Shown here piece after piece: positions 8,493 to 27,241 of a stretch of 38,007 bases of DNA (positions are counted from its first letter, which is position 1; every line of letters starts with the position of its first letter). Below the pieces are notes generated by a model. That model did not search any database. It saw nothing but the letters and a program-made list of their open reading frames with translations, and was not told the DNA's origin. The position numbers and the translations under genes are program-made. Source of the DNA: a virus (taxonomy: Duplodnaviria > Heunggongvirae > Uroviricota > Caudoviricetes); the IMG/VR virus record IMGVR_UViG_2740892426_000005, one strand, 5' to 3'.

Positions 8493-10613
8493 ATGAGTAC
8501 ATATCATAATGATCAGCCAATACTAGGTGGTCAAAATGACCCCGATTTATTAAACAGGCTCGATTTTGCAAATCACTTGGCAAATATTCTACTATTAAAT
8601 CACAATGATGATTGCCTTACTGTATCTATAGAGGCAGAGTGGGGATATGGTAAAACGTCAGTGATAAATCTTATAAAAGGTGCTTTGAATGAAAAGGAGT
8701 TCTTACCAATAATAATAGAATATAATCCATGGCTGGCCGGTCAACCTGAATCCTTGATTCAGGATTTTTTATTACAGTTCTCTTCACAACTAAATATTAA
8801 AGACAATTCAAAAGCTGCTTTGGAAGCTTCAAAAGAATTAATTGCATACTCCAATCTCTTCAGTGTAGCAAAACTTATTCCAGGGACAGAACCTTGGGCA
8901 TCTATCATAGAAAAAGTCCTCTCTAATTTTGGGAGTGCTACTAAAAAGATTGCTGAATTAAAAAAACTGGATCTTTTAGGTAGAAAAAAACAAGTAGAGA
9001 AGGCAATAAAAAAAATAAAAAATCCTATTGTGGTAATAATTGATGATATTGATCGATTGACTCCTACAGAAACTTTTCAAGTTTTACGATTGGTTAAAGC
9101 TGTTGCAGATTTCTCAGGAACTTCTTTTTTACTTGCATTTGATCCTAATTATTTGATTTCTGTGCTTGATAAAAATAATATCGTCAATTCTTCGGAGTAT
9201 CTTAATAAAATTGTTCAACTTCGAGTCCCACTTCCTGTAATCTCAGAAAGGGGTATGAATGAACTTGCAAATGCAGAACTGGAAAAGATAGCTAATAAAT
9301 CTTTAACTGACAGATTCGAAAGTGATCAAGAAAGACTAAGCTGGATTTATCATAATTATTTTAAAAAGCTAATTAAGAATCCGAGAGAGTTAAAAAGATT
9401 TTTTAACCATTTGAGATTCGTTTTAGAGCAAATTGAAGGGCAGGTATGTTTTTCTGATCTCTTTGCTTTATCTCTGGTCGCCACTAAATCGAGTTTGGTA
9501 TACGAGCATATTAAAAGCACACCAGAGGCATATATAGGGAAGAGATTCACTAATGATGGCCTTTTGATGGATAAACCTCAAGATATTGTGGATAGATTTA
9601 GTGATGAGCGAAATAAGAAACTGAGTAATTTTTCTGATCAAGAGCGTTCAGTGATGCAGGAACTCTTAGGAGATATTTTCCCACTTCTACAGTCAAGCGG
9701 GTATTCTCATTATGGGGTTTCTGATCCCGATACAGCAGGAAGGGTTTCTGCACCACAAAGGCTTCATATTGCGTTTCATTATAAAACTCCAGCAGGGTAT
9801 ATTTCTGATCATGATATTATCAGTTTCATTAATGGAGATGTTAAAAGAAACGAATTTCTAAGAGATGTGCTCTCGCAAAATGCAGAAGAAAGATTTTTTG
9901 AAATGATGAATAATTATTCGAGTTATTGTAAGGATAATAGTTTTGAAATATTAACGTGTATTTATGATACTTTTCTGTTTTCTCAAGAATTGAAATCCTC
10001 ATTGGAAAGAAACTATGGTTTTTTGACAAAAGATCTTTATAGAAGGATGAATTGGCTCACTAATAAGGTAATATCTGAAAGTGATGATAAATATGGGTTG
10101 ATAAAGGGGGTTGTAGGTAGGCATGAGAATGCGCCACTTGGTGCAGACGTATTATGCCAAGCTCGTAAACAGATTCAAAATGGATGGAATGACAAAATAT
10201 GGGTTAGTATTGAAGAATTGGCTGAACTTGAAGGTATCTTTCAACAGGTGGCTATTAAAGTTTTAAGTGATAAAATATATTTTGATTATCATCTTGAATC
10301 TCATATATTTTTCGAATTAAAGAGAGTTTCATCTCAATTTACATCAGAGTTTATTGCTTCTGTATTATCAAGTGATGGCCTGATTAGGATGTGTGAGATT
10401 ATTGGTGAAACAGGTAGTGATTCAACAAATGGCCCTTATTTTAAGTTTGATGAAATTTACTTCGGGGAAATACTTGATGTGAATGAACTTCGAAATAAAG
10501 CGAAAAATTTAGATTTTTCAATTTATCCCACACGCATTCAAGCTGTACTTAAGAGTATTCTGGATGGACAAAAATATTATTTGAGAGATGCAACTGTTGG
10601 TGAAGATTGGTAA
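8493..10613 (+). CDS. KAP-family P-loop NTPase (706 aa), candidate accessory/defence gene
   Basis: Walker A in KAP context (EAEWGYGKTS), Walker B (VVIIDDIDR), long helical C-terminal region; AT-rich by eye. Start at ATG 8493; the ORF-track start at 8487 is a TTG. Confidence 0.7.
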   Translation: MSTYHNDQPILGGQNDPDLLNRLDFANHLANILLLNHNDDCLTVSIEAEWGYGKTSVINLIKGALNEKEFLPIIIEYNPWLAGQPESLIQDFLLQFSSQLNIKDNSKAALEASKELIAYSNLFSVAKLIPGTEPWASIIEKVLSNFGSATKKIAELKKLDLLGRKKQVEKAIKKIKNPIVVIIDDIDRLTPTETFQVLRLVKAVADFSGTSFLLAFDPNYLISVLDKNNIVNSSEYLNKIVQLRVPLPVISERGMNELANAELEKIANKSLTDRFESDQERLSWIYHNYFKKLIKNPRELKRFFNHLRFVLEQIEGQVCFSDLFALSLVATKSSLVYEHIKSTPEAYIGKRFTNDGLLMDKPQDIVDRFSDERNKKLSNFSDQERSVMQELLGDIFPLLQSSGYSHYGVSDPDTAGRVSAPQRLHIAFHYKTPAGYISDHDIISFINGDVKRNEFLRDVLSQNAEERFFEMMNNYSSYCKDNSFEILTCIYDTFLFSQELKSSLERNYGFLTKDLYRRMNWLTNKVISESDDKYGLIKGVVGRHENAPLGADVLCQARKQIQNGWNDKIWVSIEELAELEGIFQQVAIKVLSDKIYFDYHLESHIFFELKRVSSQFTSEFIASVLSSDGLIRMCEIIGETGSDSTNGPYFKFDEIYFGEILDVNELRNKAKNLDFSIYPTRIQAVLKSILDGQKYYLRDATVGEDW

Positions 10614-10729
10614 TACTTTTATAGGCATGCTTAGAGATGATGGAGTATCTTTTTCTCCCTTTTGAGGAAGTGATTTCCAACTGGGCATGGATGCCACATC
10701 AAATGGACAGTTGTTGTCACCTGTCAGTT

Positions 10730-10753
10730 AGCTGCTATTTGTTTATAGCAGCT
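10730..10753. other. perfect 9-bp stem-loop (AGCTGCTAT / ATAGCAGCT) downstream of the KAP gene
   Basis: Inverted repeat read directly; no flanking T-run, so not a canonical intrinsic terminator. Confidence 0.3.
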
Positions 10754-11057
10754 GAAAGCCCACTACATAGTTACACCAGAAGGAGTAACAATGTAGTGGA
10801 TAGCTAAATTTGACCACCTTAACAGATATGTTAATTTCCCCCCCCTCGCTCACAGCGGACTTTCATCTTTGTAAACCCTTATAATTCGCTTTTCAGCGGT
10901 CATTCAGATACGGATTTACGCTTTCCTTGGCAGTGCATGACTATGACGCATGAGATCGCATGATCGTTTGAGGATCGTTTTTGCTGAGGCCAGCCAGAAC
11001 TGGCGTGCTTTTGCTTATGTCATGCAGGTGCATGAAAACCACTACATAAAGTGGGCA

Positions 11058-11133: not shown

Positions 11134-11250
11134 ATGATGTATATCTGCGAAAGTCACATTGTTGAATCAAATATAAAAACTAATTTTTTCGCAAAATATA
11201 CGAGGTATTTGTGCTTTTTGTTGTGCAGATACTGTTTGTTTAGATACTGA
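11134..11250 (+). CDS. 38-codon ORF with strong RBS (AAGGAG-N4-ATGATG), out of frame with the downstream RES ORF; possible frameshifted 5' end of that gene
   Basis: Read directly; overlaps the stop-free upstream extension (11177 onward) of the RES reading frame; T6 tract at 11184-11189 and T5 at 11215-11219. Confidence 0.35.
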   Translation: MMYICESHIVESNIKTNFFAKYTRYLCFLLCRYCLFRY

Positions 11251-11269
11251 TTCTTCAGAAGTACGTAAT

Positions 11270-18604: not shown

Positions 18605-18820
18605 ATGACGCTTGAGCGAATCAGCGCCTTTATCACGTATTGCATCGCCGTCGTGCTGGCCTGGCTGGGCGATTTGTCCATCAAGGATGCCTCAACGCTG
18701 GGCGGCCTGATGATTGGTGTGCTGATGCTGGCTATCAACTGGTACTACAAACACAAAGCCTACCAGCTTCTGCGTGACGGGCAGATCTCGCGGGAGGACT
18801 ATGAATCCATCAATCGTTAA
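18605..18820 (+). CDS. holin (71 aa)
   Basis: Two hydrophobic segments and a charged C-terminus; immediately upstream of the endolysin. Confidence 0.65.
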   Translation: MTLERISAFITYCIAVVLAWLGDLSIKDASTLGGLMIGVLMLAINWYYKHKAYQLLRDGQISREDYESINR

Positions 18821-19691
18821 ACGCTGCCTTGTCGGGGCCGTGCTGGCTATTGCTGCCATGCTGCCGGGTTTTCAGCAGCTTCACACCTCCGTGGAAGGGC
18901 TGAAACTGATTGCCGATTACGAAGGTTGTCGCCTGCAGCCGTATCAGTGCAGCGCGGGTGTCTGGACCGACGGCATTGGTAATACGTCGGGCGTCATTCC
19001 CGGCAAAACCATTACGGAGCGACAGGCAGCAGAAGGGCTGATCTCCAACGTGCTGCGTGTGGAGCGGGCGCTGGAAAGGTGTGTGAAGCAACAGCCGCCG
19101 CAGAAGGTGTATGACGCTGCGGTGTCGTTTGCCTTCAACGTGGGTACGGGCAATGCCTGCAGTTCCACGCTGGTGAAATTGCTCAATCAGCGGCGCTGGG
19201 CGGATGCGTGCCGACAGTTGCCGCGCTGGGTTTATGTAAAAGGTGTGTTTAATCAGGGGCTGGATAACCGCCGTGCGCGGGAGATGGCCTGTGTTTACAG
19301 GGAGCAAACTGAAATGAATAAGAAATTAATCAGCGGACTGTTTCTGATGTTATGGATGGTGCTGTTAATCGCAGCAATGGTGTATCCGCAGGGGATTTTT
19401 CCGGTACTGGCAGCGTCCGGCGTTTGGGTAGCCTGTTTGCTGACATGGGCGGTAATTCCGGTAGCACTGGCTGCGTTAATTAAGAATGGCCCGCTCTGGC
19501 AGGAGTTAAGGGCATCTTTGCTGAAGACAATTACCCGAAAAGAAAACGTATTTATCAGTTGGGTGATGCGATTGCTGATTGTTGTAAGTCTCGCCTGGAC
19601 GGGGTGGGCTATTACCCTGGTCTTTTATCTACTGACCGTTATTGCCTTCTGGATCACCCGTAATCAGATGGCGCAACAGGTAGCAGCATGA
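18801..19691 (+). CDS. SAR-endolysin (lysozyme domain, about residues 1-171) continuing in-frame without a stop into a LysA-like multi-TM domain (296 aa as one ORF)
   Basis: GGGAGGA RBS before ATG 18801; N-terminal SAR-like hydrophobic stretch and lysozyme motifs (GVWTDGIGNT...FNVGTGN); no stop codon before 19689. Confidence 0.7.
   Translation: MNPSIVKRCLVGAVLAIAAMLPGFQQLHTSVEGLKLIADYEGCRLQPYQCSAGVWTDGIGNTSGVIPGKTITERQAAEGLISNVLRVERALERCVKQQPPQKVYDAAVSFAFNVGTGNACSSTLVKLLNQRRWADACRQLPRWVYVKGVFNQGLDNRRAREMACVYREQTEMNKKLISGLFLMLWMVLLIAAMVYPQGIFPVLAASGVWVACLLTWAVIPVALAALIKNGPLWQELRASLLKTITRKENVFISWVMRLLIVVSLAWTGWAITLVFYLLTVIAFWITRNQMAQQVAA
19314..19691 (+). CDS. lysA: LysA-like membrane protein (125 aa) if translated from the internal ATG
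   Basis: Internal ATG at 19314 preceded by GGGAG; 3-4 predicted TM helices; P2 has a separate lysA at this position. Confidence 0.4.
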   Translation: MNKKLISGLFLMLWMVLLIAAMVYPQGIFPVLAASGVWVACLLTWAVIPVALAALIKNGPLWQELRASLLKTITRKENVFISWVMRLLIVVSLAWTGWAITLVFYLLTVIAFWITRNQMAQQVAA

Positions 19692-20116
19692 ACCGGTTGC
19701 TGCTGGTTGTGCTGGCGTTATTACTGGCGGCGCTGGGCTGGCAGACGTGGCGGCTGGCTGATGCCAGCCAGACCATTAGCACGCAGGCAGACGAGCTGCA
19801 GAGCAAAAGCCAGGCACTGGCAAAGAGCAACAGCCAGCTTATCAGCCTGTCCATTCTGACTGAAACCAATAACCGGGAGCAGGCGCGGCTCTATGCAGAA
19901 GCAGAACAGACCAGCGCGCTGCTGAGACAACGACAACACCGGATTGAGGAACTGAAACGTGAGAACGAGGATTTACGCCGCTGGGCTGATACTCCTTTGC
20001 CTGCTGACATTATCCGGCTGCGGGAACGTCCGACGCTCACCGGAGGTGCAGCTTACCGTCAGTGGTTGTCCGCGAGTGACGCCGTGTCGGCTGGATCAGG
20101 CAGCGCCGCGCACTAA
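19688..20116 (+). CDS. lysB: LysB, Rz-like i-spanin (142 aa)
   Basis: N-terminal TM, coiled-coil periplasmic region, ATGA overlap with the preceding ORF. Confidence 0.7.
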   Translation: MNRLLLVVLALLLAALGWQTWRLADASQTISTQADELQSKSQALAKSNSQLISLSILTETNNREQARLYAEAEQTSALLRQRQHRIEELKRENEDLRRWADTPLPADIIRLRERPTLTGGAAYRQWLSASDAVSAGSGSAAH

Positions 20117-20249
20117 CGGTGATCTGAACGCGTTGCTGGATGAAACGGAGGCCGCCTGGGCGGTCTGTGCAGACAAAGTGGACATGATTATTGCGTGTCA
20201 GGAGCGAAACAGTGAACAAACCACAATCCCTGCGCCACGCCCTCAATAA
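19959..20249 (+). CDS. lysC: LysC, Rz1-like o-spanin lipoprotein (96 aa), embedded in the +1 frame of lysB
   Basis: Lipobox LTLSGC after a signal-like N-terminus, Pro-rich mature part; GTG start. Confidence 0.6.
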   Translation: MRTRIYAAGLILLCLLTLSGCGNVRRSPEVQLTVSGCPRVTPCRLDQAAPRTNGDLNALLDETEAAWAVCADKVDMIIACQERNSEQTTIPAPRPQ

Positions 20250-20643: not shown

Positions 20644-21082
20644 ACTGCAGAAGGTGGACGACTGGCTGAGTGCTTTGCTGGCGAATCTGGAACCAGCCGC
20701 AAGAAGCCGCATGATGCGCCAGCTGGCGCAGGAACTGCGCCGGACACAACAGCAGAATATCAGAATGCAGCGCAACCCTGACGGCAGCAGCTATGAACCT
20801 CGACGGGTAACAGCACGCAGTAAAAAGGGGCGCATCAAACGTCAGATGTTTGCAAAGCTGCGCACCACAAAATACCTGAAAACTGCAGCCAGCGCCGATT
20901 CTGCCAGCGTGCAGTTTGAAGGTAAGGTGCAGCGCATTGCCCGTGTTCACCATTACGGCCTCCGTGATCGCGTCAGTCGCAAAGGACCGGAGGTCCGCTA
21001 TGCAGAGCGCCGCCTGTTGGGTCTTAATGGTGAGTCTTATGTTCTAACTCTTGATATATTGAATAGATTCCTTCTGTCTTGA
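20636..21082 (+). CDS. S: tail completion protein S (148 aa); last ~19 codons lie in AT-rich inserted DNA
   Basis: GTG start overlapping R stop; P2 gpS-like size; 3' end overlaps the convergent membrane-protein gene by 59 nt. Confidence 0.75.
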   Translation: MAELQKVDDWLSALLANLEPAARSRMMRQLAQELRRTQQQNIRMQRNPDGSSYEPRRVTARSKKGRIKRQMFAKLRTTKYLKTAASADSASVQFEGKVQRIARVHHYGLRDRVSRKGPEVRYAERRLLGLNGESYVLTLDILNRFLLS

Positions 21083-21830
21083 ATTCACCATATGCCCAAT
21101 GAATTGCATTTTTTTGTTCAGTTAGAATATATTTCCTAACTTTTTTAGAATAGTGAATGGTCAGTATAAAACCCAAAGAAATCCATAATAGAATAAATAT
21201 AGTTGTTGGGGCAAAGGAATAGATAAAAAATTTGTCTTTAACGAAATTCTTGACTTCTTCATCAATGTAAGCATTCCCTTCATCAGTGGTTAGTAGTTTA
21301 CAAAGAATTTCTTTATGTTCGATAGTTAATGATTTGTACTTCTCTGTACTGGCAGAGGATGACTCTTCGCAATCATCCTTTGATATTTCCCAATCAGGAG
21401 TGGTTAATATTGTAGCTGCAGTCGCCATTTTTTTTGACATATAAAATGATTCACCGGACTTTATCCAATAAAGCAATGTGCTATTTGGTGGGGTTCTAAT
21501 GGCTTGGATGAAAACTGGACCAAAAAGATAAATTGCACACAAAAAAAGAAGCGAAAATAGAACCGTGATTGATTTTTCAGCCCATGTGATAGTAGGCAGC
21601 TTTTTTAATGATATTTTTATAAGAAAAAAATTTAATATAAACGCAGGTATTCCTGATTTTTTCAAAATTACATCATGAGATTTTCTATATTTGAATAGTG
21701 CTCTTATAACTATCGTCACCAAAGTTATAACAGCTCCAATAATGGAAATCCATGCGGCAAGTGCCGCTGCCGGGGTGTTTAAAAATTCAGCATTAAATAT
21801 ATTAGAACTTATTGGATTCATAACACTCAT
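21024..21830 (-). CDS. accessory membrane protein (268 aa, about 3 TM helices), AT-rich insertion between S and V
   Basis: AGGTGG RBS before ATG 21830; hydrophobic segments at about residues 20-44, 86-108 and 201-224; AT-rich by eye; this is the position of the nonessential orf30 in P2. Confidence 0.6.
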   Translation of the reverse strand: MSVMNPISSNIFNAEFLNTPAAALAAWISIIGAVITLVTIVIRALFKYRKSHDVILKKSGIPAFILNFFLIKISLKKLPTITWAEKSITVLFSLLFLCAIYLFGPVFIQAIRTPPNSTLLYWIKSGESFYMSKKMATAATILTTPDWEISKDDCEESSSASTEKYKSLTIEHKEILCKLLTTDEGNAYIDEEVKNFVKDKFFIYSFAPTTIFILLWISLGFILTIHYSKKVRKYILTEQKNAIHWAYGEFKTEGIYSIYQELEHKTHH

Positions 21831-24361: not shown

Positions 24362-25863
24362 GCACAAAATTTTATACCCTGCTGACGGATATTGGCGCGG
24401 CGAAACTTGCCAGCGCCGCCGCGCTCGGTGTGCCGCTAAAAATTACCCATATGGCGGTGGGCGATGGCGGCGGAGCATTGCCGACGCCGGACGCAAAGCA
24501 GACGGCACTGGTAAATGAGAAACGCCGGGCTGCGCTGAATATGCTCTATATCGACCCGCAGAACAGCAGCCAGATTATTGCTGAACAGGTGATCCCTGAA
24601 AACGAGGGCGGTTGGTGGATACGTGAAGTGGGCCTGTTTGATGAGTCAGGGGCATTGATTGCCGTGGGGAACTGCCCGGAAAGCTATAAACCGCAACTGG
24701 CTGAAGGCAGCGGGCGTACCCAGACCGTGCGCATGGTGCTGATTACCAGCAGCACGGACAATATCACCCTGAAAATCGACCCTGCCGTAGTGCTGGCAAC
24801 CCGCAAGTATGTGGATGACAAGGTACTGGAGCTGAAGGTGTACGTGGATGATCAGATGGCAAAACATCTTGCCGCACCGGACCCGCATTCACAGTATGCA
24901 CCCAAAGAAAGTCCGACGTTTACCGGGACACCAAAAGCGCCAACGCCAGCGGCAGGGAATAACACCACGCAGGTTGCGACCACCGCGTTTGTTCAGGCGG
25001 CACTGACGGCCCTGATTAATGGTGCGCCAGCCACGCTGGACACGCTGAAAGAATTAGCCGCAGCCATTAACAATGATCCGAAATTCAGTACCACCATTAA
25101 CAATGCGCTGGCACTGAAAGCGCCGCTGTCAAGTCCGGCACTCACCGGAACGCCAACAGCCCCCACTGCCGCACAGTCGGTTAACAATACACAGATTGCC
25201 ACCACGGCTTTTGTGAAATCGGCAATTGCAGCAATGGTGGGGTCAGCACCTGCTGCACTGGATACACTGAACGAACTGGCGGCGGCACTGGGGAATGATC
25301 CGAACTTTGCCACGACAATGCTTAATGCGCTGGCAGGTAAACAACCGCTGGACAATACGCTGACTAATTTGAGTGGAAAGGATGTCGCTGGTCTTCTCTC
25401 ATACCTTGGTTTGGGCGAAGGTGCTCCAGCTATTGGTGTTCCGTTCTTCTGGCCGTCCGCCGCAATGCCAGATACCGTAATCGACAGCTGGTCCGGCATG
25501 GTGTTTTTGAAGTTCAACGGCGCGAAATTCTCTGCCACTGATTACCCTGCGCTGGCGAAAGTGTTTCCTTCGCTGGTATTACCTGAAGCCCGCGGTGATT
25601 TCATTCGTATCTGGGATGACGGTCGAGGGGCGGACAGTGGGCGAGCATTATTAAGCTGGCAGGCAGCAACATCTTTATCGCAATTTGGCGGTAATTATCC
25701 AGAAGGGTCCGGTCATGCGATTGCTGATTACGATGGAATATCAGCACACCAGCCAGGTTTCTCTCGATTTCAGTACACCAGTAACTCAGTAGGAGATGGT
25801 GTTAATTTTATTGCCGTCAGACCGCGAAATATTGCATTTAACTTTCTGGTGAGGGCTAAATAA
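24358..25863 (+). CDS. H: tail fibre protein H (501 aa); C-terminal about 151 aa lie inside the invertible segment
   Basis: Conserved P2 H-like N-terminus; repeated Gln/Thr-rich ...QVATTAFV... motifs; a cix-like site is embedded at codons 346-354. Confidence 0.85.
   Translation: MSTKFYTLLTDIGAAKLASAAALGVPLKITHMAVGDGGGALPTPDAKQTALVNEKRRAALNMLYIDPQNSSQIIAEQVIPENEGGWWIREVGLFDESGALIAVGNCPESYKPQLAEGSGRTQTVRMVLITSSTDNITLKIDPAVVLATRKYVDDKVLELKVYVDDQMAKHLAAPDPHSQYAPKESPTFTGTPKAPTPAAGNNTTQVATTAFVQAALTALINGAPATLDTLKELAAAINNDPKFSTTINNALALKAPLSSPALTGTPTAPTAAQSVNNTQIATTAFVKSAIAAMVGSAPAALDTLNELAAALGNDPNFATTMLNALAGKQPLDNTLTNLSGKDVAGLLSYLGLGEGAPAIGVPFFWPSAAMPDTVIDSWSGMVFLKFNGAKFSATDYPALAKVFPSLVLPEARGDFIRIWDDGRGADSGRALLSWQAATSLSQFGGNYPEGSGHAIADYDGISAHQPGFSRFQYTSNSVGDGVNFIAVRPRNIAFNFLVRAK
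25394..25419. repeat. cix/gix/hix-like inversion site 1 (TTCTCTCATACC-TT-GGTTTGGGCGAA)
   Basis: 26-bp site resembling the Hin/Gin/Cin crossover consensus; inverted relative to site 2; encodes SYLGLGE at the constant/variable junction of H. Confidence 0.6.
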
Positions 25864-26456
25864 TGAAACCTGTTTTTGATGAAAATGGGCTGGCTACAGT
25901 GCCGGGCGATATGCGTTGTTTTTATTATAATGCAGTAACGTATGAATATACCGGCTGGTCTGATGAATATATTAATACTGGCGTAAGTATGCCCGCCTGT
26001 TCCACTGGTATTGACCCGAGCGAAAACATTCCGGGAAAAGTGGCAGTATTTACGGGTAAGGGATGGAGCCATGAAGAAGACCATCGCAATGAGACCGTTT
26101 ACTCAACTGAAAATGGCGCAGCTGTTACAGTGGATTATATCGGTGCCATCAAAGACGGTTATGTCACGCTTTCACCGTTAACGCCATACGATAAATGGGA
26201 TGGTGAGAAATGGGTGACGGATACCGAGGCACAGCATAGCGCCGCAGTAGAAGCGGCAGAAGCACAGCGCCAGTCGCTGATTGATGCTGCAATGGCTTCC
26301 ATCAGTCTGATTCAACTGAAATTACAGGCCGGGCGGAAGCTGACGCAGCCAGAAAACACCCGACTTAACGCTGTGCTGGATTATATTGACGCGGTGACGG
26401 CAACAGATACCAGCACAGCGCCGGACGTCATCTGGCCTGAACTGCCGGAGGCGTAG
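25863..26456 (+). CDS. G: tail fibre assembly protein (197 aa), currently expressed orientation
   Basis: Tfa-like; 1-nt overlap with H stop. Confidence 0.8.
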   Translation: MKPVFDENGLATVPGDMRCFYYNAVTYEYTGWSDEYINTGVSMPACSTGIDPSENIPGKVAVFTGKGWSHEEDHRNETVYSTENGAAVTVDYIGAIKDGYVTLSPLTPYDKWDGEKWVTDTEAQHSAAVEAAEAQRQSLIDAAMASISLIQLKLQAGRKLTQPENTRLNAVLDYIDAVTATDTSTAPDVIWPELPEA

Positions 26457-26868
26457 GCCATTCAATATCTGGCGCACCGGAAGTATCGACCAGCTCCAGT
26501 GCGTCCAGATAATCCAGCCACAAATTATATTGCGCCAGTTCCTCACCTTTCAGGCGACCAATCGCCGCTTTACCAGGCCATTGCTTACTGTTTATGTATT
26601 CGTTGACCTGATTAATCAATTGCTGCTTTTCCAGTTCGGCTGCGGCAATTTGTTCCTCATGAGTTGGCGGTGGAATATCAATCCATGCAGGCATTCCGTC
26701 GATGACACCTCTGTATTTTCCTTCTGGTGCTTCCTTCATAAATTCGGCGGCAACAGTGTCGTCAATTTCGATTCCATCACCGGGCCATTCGCCGGATTCC
26801 TGATAAGCGATTTTAAGCTCCACAGGGAAAAACGCATTTTTATCGGCACTGAAAATATATTTCTGCAT
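26428..26868 (-). CDS. alternative tail fibre assembly protein (146 aa), silent orientation
   Basis: Tfa-like on the opposite strand inside the invertible segment; convergent 29-nt overlap with G. Confidence 0.75.
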   Translation of the reverse strand: MQKYIFSADKNAFFPVELKIAYQESGEWPGDGIEIDDTVAAEFMKEAPEGKYRGVIDGMPAWIDIPPPTHEEQIAAAELEKQQLINQVNEYINSKQWPGKAAIGRLKGEELAQYNLWLDYLDALELVDTSGAPDIEWPTPPAVQAR

Positions 26869-26870
26869 TT

Positions 26871-27227
26871 CTACCGTCCTATCGAAATATAACTGAATCT
26901 GTATTGCTGTGAGATATCACTGGTTGCCACACGCCACGCTGAATTACTGATATGTTCAAAATTTACAGACAAAACCTGCAGGGCAGGATTCGACGGGTCT
27001 GACTGAACGGCATCAGACATAACACTGACTGAAACCATCGGCTGATTAGGGAATGGTATAGGGAAGTGTCCACTGATAAAGCGGGTCGTGTTTCCTGAAA
27101 AAGTGCCAAACTGAACAATATATCCACCTGGTAGCCTGAACCATCCCGAACCAGAAGCGAATGCTCCCATATCCGGTATCTGATTATCTCCTGTGCCCAC
27201 ATCCCTTTTCGCCGCTTCTCCTAAACC
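26871..27227 (-). CDS. promoterless alternative tail-fibre C-terminal cassette (about 118 aa), fused to H only after inversion
   Basis: Minus-strand reading from site 2 begins GLGEAAKRD..., matching the GLGEG... junction of the current H; the ORF-track start at 27269 lies beyond the crossover site and is not a real start. Confidence 0.65.
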   Translation of the reverse strand, partial: GLGEAAKRDVGTGDNQIPDMGAFASGSGWFRLPGGYIVQFGTFSGNTTRFISGHFPIPFPNQPMVSVSVMSDAVQSDPSNPALQVLSVNFEHISNSAWRVATSDISQQYRFSYISIGR

Positions 27228-27241
27228 AACGTTTAAGAAAA
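27216..27241. repeat. cix/gix/hix-like inversion site 2 (TTCTCCTAAACC-AA-CGTTTAAGAAAA)
   Basis: Reverse complement TTTTCTTAAACG-TT-GGTTTAGGAGAA matches site 1 in 10/12 right-arm positions with the same central TT; about 55 nt upstream of the invertase gene. Confidence 0.6.

Follow-up and report, generated by a model that had tools for sequence, protein, structure and literature searches.

The window analyzed here, a 38,007-nt stretch of DNA recorded as IMG/VR virus IMGVR_UViG_2740892426_000005, carries a complete P2-like prophage and, on the far right, the host genes ybjL, ybjM and grxA. As in the P2 cassette Y-K-lysA-lysB-lysC, its lysis genes follow the order holin, endolysin, LysA and overlapping spanins (Table 1), with the LysA-like protein placed between the endolysin gene and lysB as expected for its family. 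In P2 and in every relative of this prophage that we examined, lysA is a cistron of its own, whereas in the window no in-frame stop precedes it and the two genes are fused. A single frame extends over 296 codons from the ATG at 18801 to the TGA at 19689–19691 (305 aa counting from a GTG at 18774), and the lysA ATG lies within it, in frame, as codon 172. The initial annotation had reported this uninterrupted frame, its two domains and an internal ATG with its own ribosome-binding site, and the description is accurate on each point.

Table 1. Features of the lysis region in window coordinates
Feature	Position	Strand	Evidence or remark
Holin, 71 aa, HP1 family (class II, pinholin-type family)	18605..18820	+	20-nt overlap with endolysin start
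Fused ORF (endolysin, 8-residue frameshift linker, LysA-like protein)	18801..19691	+	exact product called on 24–30 contigs
P1-Lyz-type SAR endolysin, authentic codons 1–163	18801..19289	+	PF00959, 1XJT/1XJU, hydropathy, alignment A2
75-nt G-rich target for single-base deletions	19237..19311	+	simulation on intact twin
Eight frameshift-derived codons (CVYREQTE), linker in place of the conserved WCLQGAN C-terminus	19290..19313	+	
1-bp deletion site	19291	+	alignment A1 against four relatives; whole-window comparison with K56-43-un prophage
Shine–Dalgarno-like AGGGAG, 9 nt before the LysA-like ATG	19299..19304	+	same in all relatives; motif unaltered by the deletion
Former endolysin stop TGA, present but out of frame	19310..19312	+	
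LysA-family membrane protein, 125 aa in relatives, intact; also tail of the fused ORF	19314..19691	+	
lysB (Rz-like i-spanin)	19688..20116	+	TIGR03495, E = 9.8e-52; PGAP call in the twin; start overlaps LysA-like stop (ATGA); no effect of the deletion
lysC (Rz1-like o-spanin), lipobox LSGC	19959..20249	+	start called by PGAP in the twin lies at the equivalent of window 20001; no effect of the deletion

The first half of the fused product contains a GH24 (T4-lysozyme-type) catalytic domain. Residues 39–161 match the whole Pfam model Phage_lysozyme (PF00959, E = 1.9e-39), and the closest solved relatives are the P1 lysozyme structures 1XJT and 1XJU (E = 7e-27). The Glu-8X-Cys-5X-Thr triad that defines these enzymes (PMC3556154) is present as E41-8X-C50-5X-T56, aligned to EGCRRDPYMCPAGVWT of P1 Lyz. 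All three residues are invariant in alignment A2, which draws on eight relatives from other enterobacterial genera, including Citrobacter, Salmonella, Klebsiella, Mixta, Pantoea, Trabulsiella and Dryocola. The SAR segment occupies approximately residues 5–24 (IVKRCLVGAVLAIAAMLPGF), where the basic residues K7 and R8 are followed by CLVGAVLAIAAMLPGF, a weakly hydrophobic, Gly/Ala-rich run with a Kyte–Doolittle peak of 1.78. In the same alignment C9 and C50 are invariant and C43 nearly so, observations that concern the presence of these cysteines only. Cys9 and Cys43 are candidates for disulfide control, and the lysozyme bears the sequence hallmarks of a disulfide-regulated SAR endolysin.

Comparison with P1 Lyz shows both shared and differing features. 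Both proteins combine a GH24 domain, a triad with a central Cys, a second Cys two residues past the Glu, a Cys within a weakly hydrophobic Gly/Ala-rich N-terminal TM segment, and a C-terminal CLxG motif. The last of these is strongly conserved: W164-C165-L166-x-G168 is identical in 9 of 9 intact sequences of A2 and aligns with LCLTG of P1 Lyz. The SAR Cys, in contrast, is residue 9 and falls out of alignment with Cys13 of P1, and the window allele, unlike P1 Lyz, lacks its last seven residues and continues into a membrane protein. AlphaFold2 modelling of the intact lysozyme from 10 aligned sequences gave a poor result (mean pLDDT 55); the C-terminal helix it suggested at residues 152–169 carries no weight in our reading.

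The second half of the product, residues 172–295, matches the whole NCBIfam model NF038378 ('DNZ54_00345 family') with E = 6.5e-34, and with E = 7.4e-35 for the LysA-like protein. It falls into PHROG 162 (E = 1.8e-42), the same PHROG as P2 LysA (E = 1.8e-67), with a full-length profile match to the P2 LysA family; precomputed hits also include PF28015 (LysA). A BLASTP comparison with P2 LysA gave a weak match (E = 0.002 over 35 residues), a search of the LysA-like protein against a local Pfam copy gave none, and a PADLOC search with this protein found nothing. Homology to LysA is settled by the PHROG 162 assignment together with the precomputed PF28015 match. Hydropathy of the fused protein peaks weakly near the N-terminus (1.78), then strongly at three to four places in the tail: residues 176–194 and 209–227 and a 39-residue hydrophobic stretch at 249–287 that is compatible with a hairpin. 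By its hydropathy this is a small polytopic membrane protein of the kind represented by P2 LysA, a separately encoded antiholin with four TM segments (PMC3091744). Four predicted TM segments in a native N-in/C-in topology, with a central loop of charge +5 in the cytoplasm, fit the profile. Delay of lysis by antiholin activity is known for P2 LysA alone (PMC3091744).

The remaining cassette genes place the locus only partly with P2. Rather than a P2 Y-type protein, the holin belongs to the HP1 family (PF16080, E = 4.3e-9; PHROG 20, E = 1.9e-26; weaker match to P21 holin S, PF04971), and PGAP names its counterpart in an intact relative 'HP1 family phage holin'. The family prototype, a pinholin, has a SAR endolysin as its partner (PMC7312051). 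The lysozyme has no significant similarity to P2 K. The earlier assignments of a SAR endolysin and of a LysA-like protein with three to four TM segments hold up against the hydropathy profile, the P1 lysozyme match and PHROG 162, while the proposed analogy to P2 K and lysA carries over to the gene order and to LysA but not to K, which is non-homologous to this enzyme.

The origin of the fusion became apparent in alignment A1, which compares the window with E. coli K56-43-un, E. coli HS, Klebsiella phage 4LV2017 and Escherichia phage 500465-1. Among these five sequences the window alone lacks one G of CCTGGTG, reading CCTGTG instead, and the 296-codon frame exists because of this missing base at 19291. 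From codon 164 on, TGG TGT becomes TGT GTT, with loss of the Trp and a shift of frame by −1. In the relatives the lysozyme has 170 aa, ending in RRAREMAWCLQGAN (REMAWCLQGAN*) at a TGA, and a separate gene for the 125-aa LysA-like protein follows with its ATG one base past that stop (TGA-A-ATG). The deletion lies seven codons ahead of the endolysin stop, so that ribosomes enter the LysA-like frame and bypass a stop codon that is itself unmutated. The initial annotation had suggested that the K stop was lost, by fusion or decay; its substance survives, but the TGA is still there and the mechanism is a 1-bp deletion upstream of it. The lysozyme domain had been drawn to about codon 171, but the last eight residues quoted for it (CVYREQTE) are frameshift products and the authentic end in relatives is WCLQGAN*. 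A check of the deletion site for signals of slippage or programmed frameshifting was negative: CCTGGTG does not form a slippery heptamer, and there is no support for a programmed event.

The prophage of E. coli K56-43-un (NZ_CP053079.1), which we call the intact twin, occupies the same chromosomal location as the window prophage, has 0 mismatches to it in the surrounding 3.9 kb and remains near-identical across 38 kb. With the G present, it encodes a lysozyme (WP_021522003.1) and a DNZ54_00345 family protein (WP_021522004.1) as two genes. Over the 38 kb, the differences comprise this G, one 2-bp poly-A deletion (A7 to A5 at about 11175), approximately 3–5 substitutions, mainly at the borders of the invertible tail-fibre segment, and one segment inversion. 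Phages of Wadgaonvirus and Elveevirus (Escherichia phage 500465-1 and Klebsiella phage 4LV2017) are more distant, at 96.9–97.5% identity over the 891-nt query, and like the intact twin they have the extra G and two genes where the window prophage has one fused ORF.

Broader searches returned the same picture. All 30 phage records covering most of the query have 892 nt against the 891 of the window, as do the best 30 E. coli records listed. An 80-nt query spanning the deleted junction found 0 exact matches among the 786 finished E. coli records in which the whole junction is covered, the best match at 98.8% amounting to one gap. Neither IMG/VR nor the GTDB species representatives contain the deleted 25-mer junction (0 occurrences in each), whereas at least 120 IMG/VR contigs have the intact 26-mer junction. 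The arrangement of two genes split by TGA-A-ATG is ancestral and almost universal.

These counts bear directly on the proposal, raised in the initial annotation, that the locus encodes a natural SAR endolysin with an evolved C-terminal multi-TM tail. Enc34 ORF39, from a Hafnia phage, and M4Lys likewise join a muralytic domain to C-terminal TM sequence; such endolysins are lytic, and a tether-and-release model has been proposed for them (PMC8943055). Moreover, both domains of the window hybrid are complete by profile match. However, Enc34 ORF39 and M4Lys belong to another catalytic family, have no SAR domain and carry a single TM helix within a conserved single ORF, whereas the tail here is a whole neighbouring four-TM protein joined by a frameshift in one lineage. 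Conservation of a single-ORF architecture across related phages, as in the Enc34 type, is not found. That annotation had called for homologous phages to be compared at the junction, with shared in-frame continuity marking the fusion as normal, and the comparison yielded two cistrons instead. The reading fails on precisely this ground, that homologous phages and prophages lack the continuity: the deleted junction of the window, like that of a second deletion (GGG to GG) described below, is absent from the searched finished E. coli genomes, phage records, IMG/VR and GTDB representatives, and the close relatives examined have two cistrons. Furthermore, the genes are separate in a prophage whose 3.9-kb lysis region is identical, and whose 38 kb as a whole are near-identical, to those of the window; at the junction, frameshift products take the place of a conserved motif; and the LysA part retains its own Shine–Dalgarno sequence and ATG. 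We therefore reject a conserved natural fusion, to which we assign next to no probability.

A sequencing or assembly error in the window, with two genes in the true genome, was also considered. The private A7-to-A5 homopolymer indel in the same record points that way, as does the resemblance of many other fused database versions to homopolymer indel errors. Against this, the deletion site is a GG dinucleotide rather than a long homopolymer, and the exact 296-aa product was recovered repeatedly, on 24 contigs read (48 index blocks) or, by the cluster table, on 30. Different samples are represented among the carrier contigs, which stem from NCBI, ENA and Logan and were in part assembled with MEGAHIT or SPAdes; the counts are drawn from heterogeneous public assemblies in which one clone may be over-sampled. 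In 5 of 5 carriers whose DNA was examined, the deletion is present with a few private SNPs and full-length neighbouring genes, and one carrier shows patches of substitutions, including three synonymous changes within the lysozyme. The intact parental lysozyme allele is found on 218 contigs versus 30 for the fused allele, and the intact LysA-like allele on 232. Since the same fused protein recurs in independent assemblies with intact neighbours, a read error in the window was dismissed as highly improbable, and the deletion is a heritable allele of one narrow E. coli prophage lineage.

Overall, we conclude with a probability of roughly 90% that the fusion arose when a single base was recently and genuinely deleted from the endolysin gene of a P2-like (Peduoviridae) E. 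coli prophage that is intact in other respects. The indel changes the frame relative to intact, near-identical relatives, and the resulting state is derived and rare in the family. The most fitting label for the allele is frameshift lesion of a lysis gene (a pseudogene in annotation terms) rather than designed fusion, and the 296-aa ORF should be annotated as a frameshifted endolysin gene followed by lysA, with no new fusion enzyme. It is an ordinary finding in that sense: a frameshift has altered two well-known lysis genes of a P2-like prophage family common in E. coli and Klebsiella, and no new system is involved.

The deletion would probably have consequences for lysis. Translation would run via the 8-residue CVYREQTE linker into the LysA ATG and on to the LysA stop, producing the 296-aa hybrid, and the conserved C-terminal WCLxG motif would be destroyed. 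Every endolysin molecule would end in strongly hydrophobic TM helices, in effect a permanent membrane anchor, and no free 170-aa endolysin would form unless the linker were cleaved. SAR endolysins act once they are out of the membrane, and their tethered form is reported to be catalytically inactive (PMC9239132, PMC7312051). With hydropathy values of 2.64, 2.33 and 1.97 for the LysA segments versus 1.78 for the SAR segment, the tail helices are far more hydrophobic and should therefore keep the enzyme tethered through a stretch of about 12 residues; they could not exit the membrane as the weak N-terminal SAR helix does. The C-terminal TM tail is accordingly predicted to prevent release of the fused endolysin as a soluble enzyme. 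The LysA moiety would suffer as well: because its N-terminus would lie behind a periplasmic domain, its first helix would cross from outside to inside, against the positive-inside rule, leaving the moiety inverted with the +5 loop facing the periplasm. Some LysA may still arise by internal initiation at the intact AGGGAG-N9-ATG, which is plausible given that the Shine–Dalgarno sequence and ATG are untouched, and read-through ribosomes arriving from upstream could disturb it. Lysis after induction would be abolished or delayed. We infer that lysis is probably impaired, and a clear lysis defect is the outcome towards which we lean. The prophage is otherwise complete, and its carriers may form particles yet fail normal lysis on induction, with possible bearing on prophage transmissibility.

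A mild effect on lysis, or none, is a lesser but real possibility. We regard as similarly tentative the corresponding account of the protein, in which the deletion is genuine and the hybrid is still lytic or near-neutral, exit of the SAR segment on depolarisation activating the domain, nearby murein being cut on the tether or after clipping of the linker, and LysA being supplied by internal initiation. The catalytic domain (residues 39–161), the triad and the SAR Cys are untouched, and the lysA start signals are intact. The SAR helix could still exit the bilayer and activate the tethered domain, and a periplasmic protease might cut the linker. The C-terminal anchor alone is no proof of inactivity, since Enc34 ORF39 and M4Lys are lytic with a C-terminal TM domain (PMC8943055). 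On the other hand, the invariant WCLxG end is gone, the tether of about 12 residues precedes a strongly hydrophobic helix, and tethered forms of SAR endolysins have been reported inactive (PMC9239132, PMC7312051). Persistence of the allele can be read both ways. With about 30 carrier contigs and slight diversity among them, the allele is evidently not lost rapidly, and its persistence with some diversification within the lineage counts in favour of a lytic or near-neutral hybrid; a lesion in a repressed prophage, however, can persist without function. Persistence fits a silent prophage lesion, and would also fit a tolerated or functional protein.

To place the window allele among other endolysin–LysA fusions, we compared the hybrid with a large protein collection and obtained about 44 proteins of 276–300 aa bearing both domains. 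The window-type junction REMACVYREQTE accounts for three sequences on 32 contigs. A larger class, with the junction RRARRWPG[VA]YREQTE, reflects loss of a G in a CGGGAG run (GGG to GG) and comprises 30 sequences on about 35 contigs. The junction AWCLQEQTE corresponds to a deletion in a CAGGGAG run and NQGWITAVRGRWPG to one in a GGGG run, and several further junction types occur once each. Because the junction peptides differ, the deletions must have arisen at different G-runs, which rules out a common origin of all database fusions. In the intact twin no stop codon interrupts the lysA frame over the 25 codons that precede its ATG, and simulation of every 1-bp deletion on that sequence showed that any such deletion within a 75-nt stretch (about 19237–19311; 75 of 513 gene positions) yields the 296-aa fusion. 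At least seven different one-base deletions within this target are represented in public data.

Such recurrence invites the suggestion that the G-rich gene end is a contingency (phase-variable) switch, or a repeatedly selected target for disarming prophage lysis. Seven or more distinct deletions lead to the same fusion, and lesions that disable lysis would spare lysogens from death on induction. Nevertheless, the alleles other than that of the window are mostly singletons, eleven of them with further frameshifts; the GGG-to-GG and window deletions are both absent from approximately 783 finished RefSeq genomes; and runs of 2–4 bases are too short for classical slippage switches. We consider a switch or recurrent selected target very unlikely. 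The related view of the lesion itself, namely that it was selected for disarming lysis or that the anchored hybrid is newly active in holin-independent or localised murein cleavage, with the 75-nt end as a recurrent target, strikes us as improbable too, if a shade less so.

Two chromosome-scale GenBank assemblies with the GGG-to-GG deletion were checked, and both contain many split or fused phage genes nearby, as expected of indel-ridden sequence. Given these broken neighbours and the absence of the deletion from the finished RefSeq genomes, the GGG-to-GG class is probably mostly artefact. Most of the roughly 40 fusions other than the window allele read as homopolymer indel errors or sporadic lesions, and not as a selected architecture. 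Caution is thus warranted with database entries of this type, where some 40 'lysozyme–LysA fusion' proteins trace to one-base deletions in the same 75-nt stretch, many of them in indel-prone assemblies.

The variable region of the prophage, with the portal gene on one side and replication genes on the other, contains a KAP-family P-loop NTPase gene and a RES-family NAD+ phosphorylase gene. Because the KAP NTPase matches PADLOC PifA (E=2e-64), its sequence suggests that the two genes may form a cargo pair of the abortive-infection type in this P2-like prophage. The PifA-like gene also varies among contigs carrying the endolysin-LysA fusion: in one of these, L008, a 9-bp in-frame deletion (AATAAAAAA) affords a product of 703 aa versus 706 aa. 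In the window, the RES-family gene has lost 2 bp from a poly-A run (A7 to A5) around codon 15, and its ORF ends after 39 codons. The A5 run is private to the window; A7 is present in K56-43-un, the E. coli with a near-identical prophage and separate endolysin and lysA genes, and in five of five other fusion carriers. The deletion may be a second, genuine lesion; slippage or a homopolymer error could also account for it.

A further cargo slot is probably occupied by a DUF6216-family gene, which lies at the position of P2 orf30 on the strand opposite to its S-like and V-like tail gene neighbours. No match to this gene was found in PADLOC. Elsewhere in the tail region, a 1.8-kb tail-fibre segment adjoining a recombinase-family (invertase) gene has opposite orientations in the window versus K56-43-un and the fusion carriers L005 and L006. 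This arrangement looks like a Cin/Gin-type host-range switch, of which the window would hold the other orientation.

Coordinates and sizes of the features discussed
Feature	Location	Strand	Remark
KAP-family P-loop NTPase, 706 aa	window ~8800-10920 (= L010:28850-30970)	minus in L010	adjoins RES gene
9-bp in-frame deletion, PifA-like KAP NTPase gene	L008:~200-220 (= window 9005-9013)
RES-family NAD+ phosphorylase gene, indel region	window ~11134-11260		indel ~11175
DUF6216-family gene	window ~21024-21830	minus	between S-like and V-like tail genes
Tail-fibre and tail-fibre-assembly genes, inverted segment	window 25394-27229
Broken phage genes, L012/L013			scaffold gene 136+77 aa; terminase 125+461 aa; small-terminase-GpL fusion 402 aa

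In the chromosome-scale E. coli assemblies L012 and L013 (GCA_951658385.1, GCA_951660265.1), many phage genes are split or fused inside 13 kb, which indicates that the sequence is indel-prone; fusion proteins predicted from such assemblies are therefore not to be trusted. The LysA-family membrane protein, which has no muralytic domain, is called 'endolysin' in the RefSeq phage records L003 and L004 (NC_047818, NC_049342) and in PHROG 162, a misnomer that is spreading.
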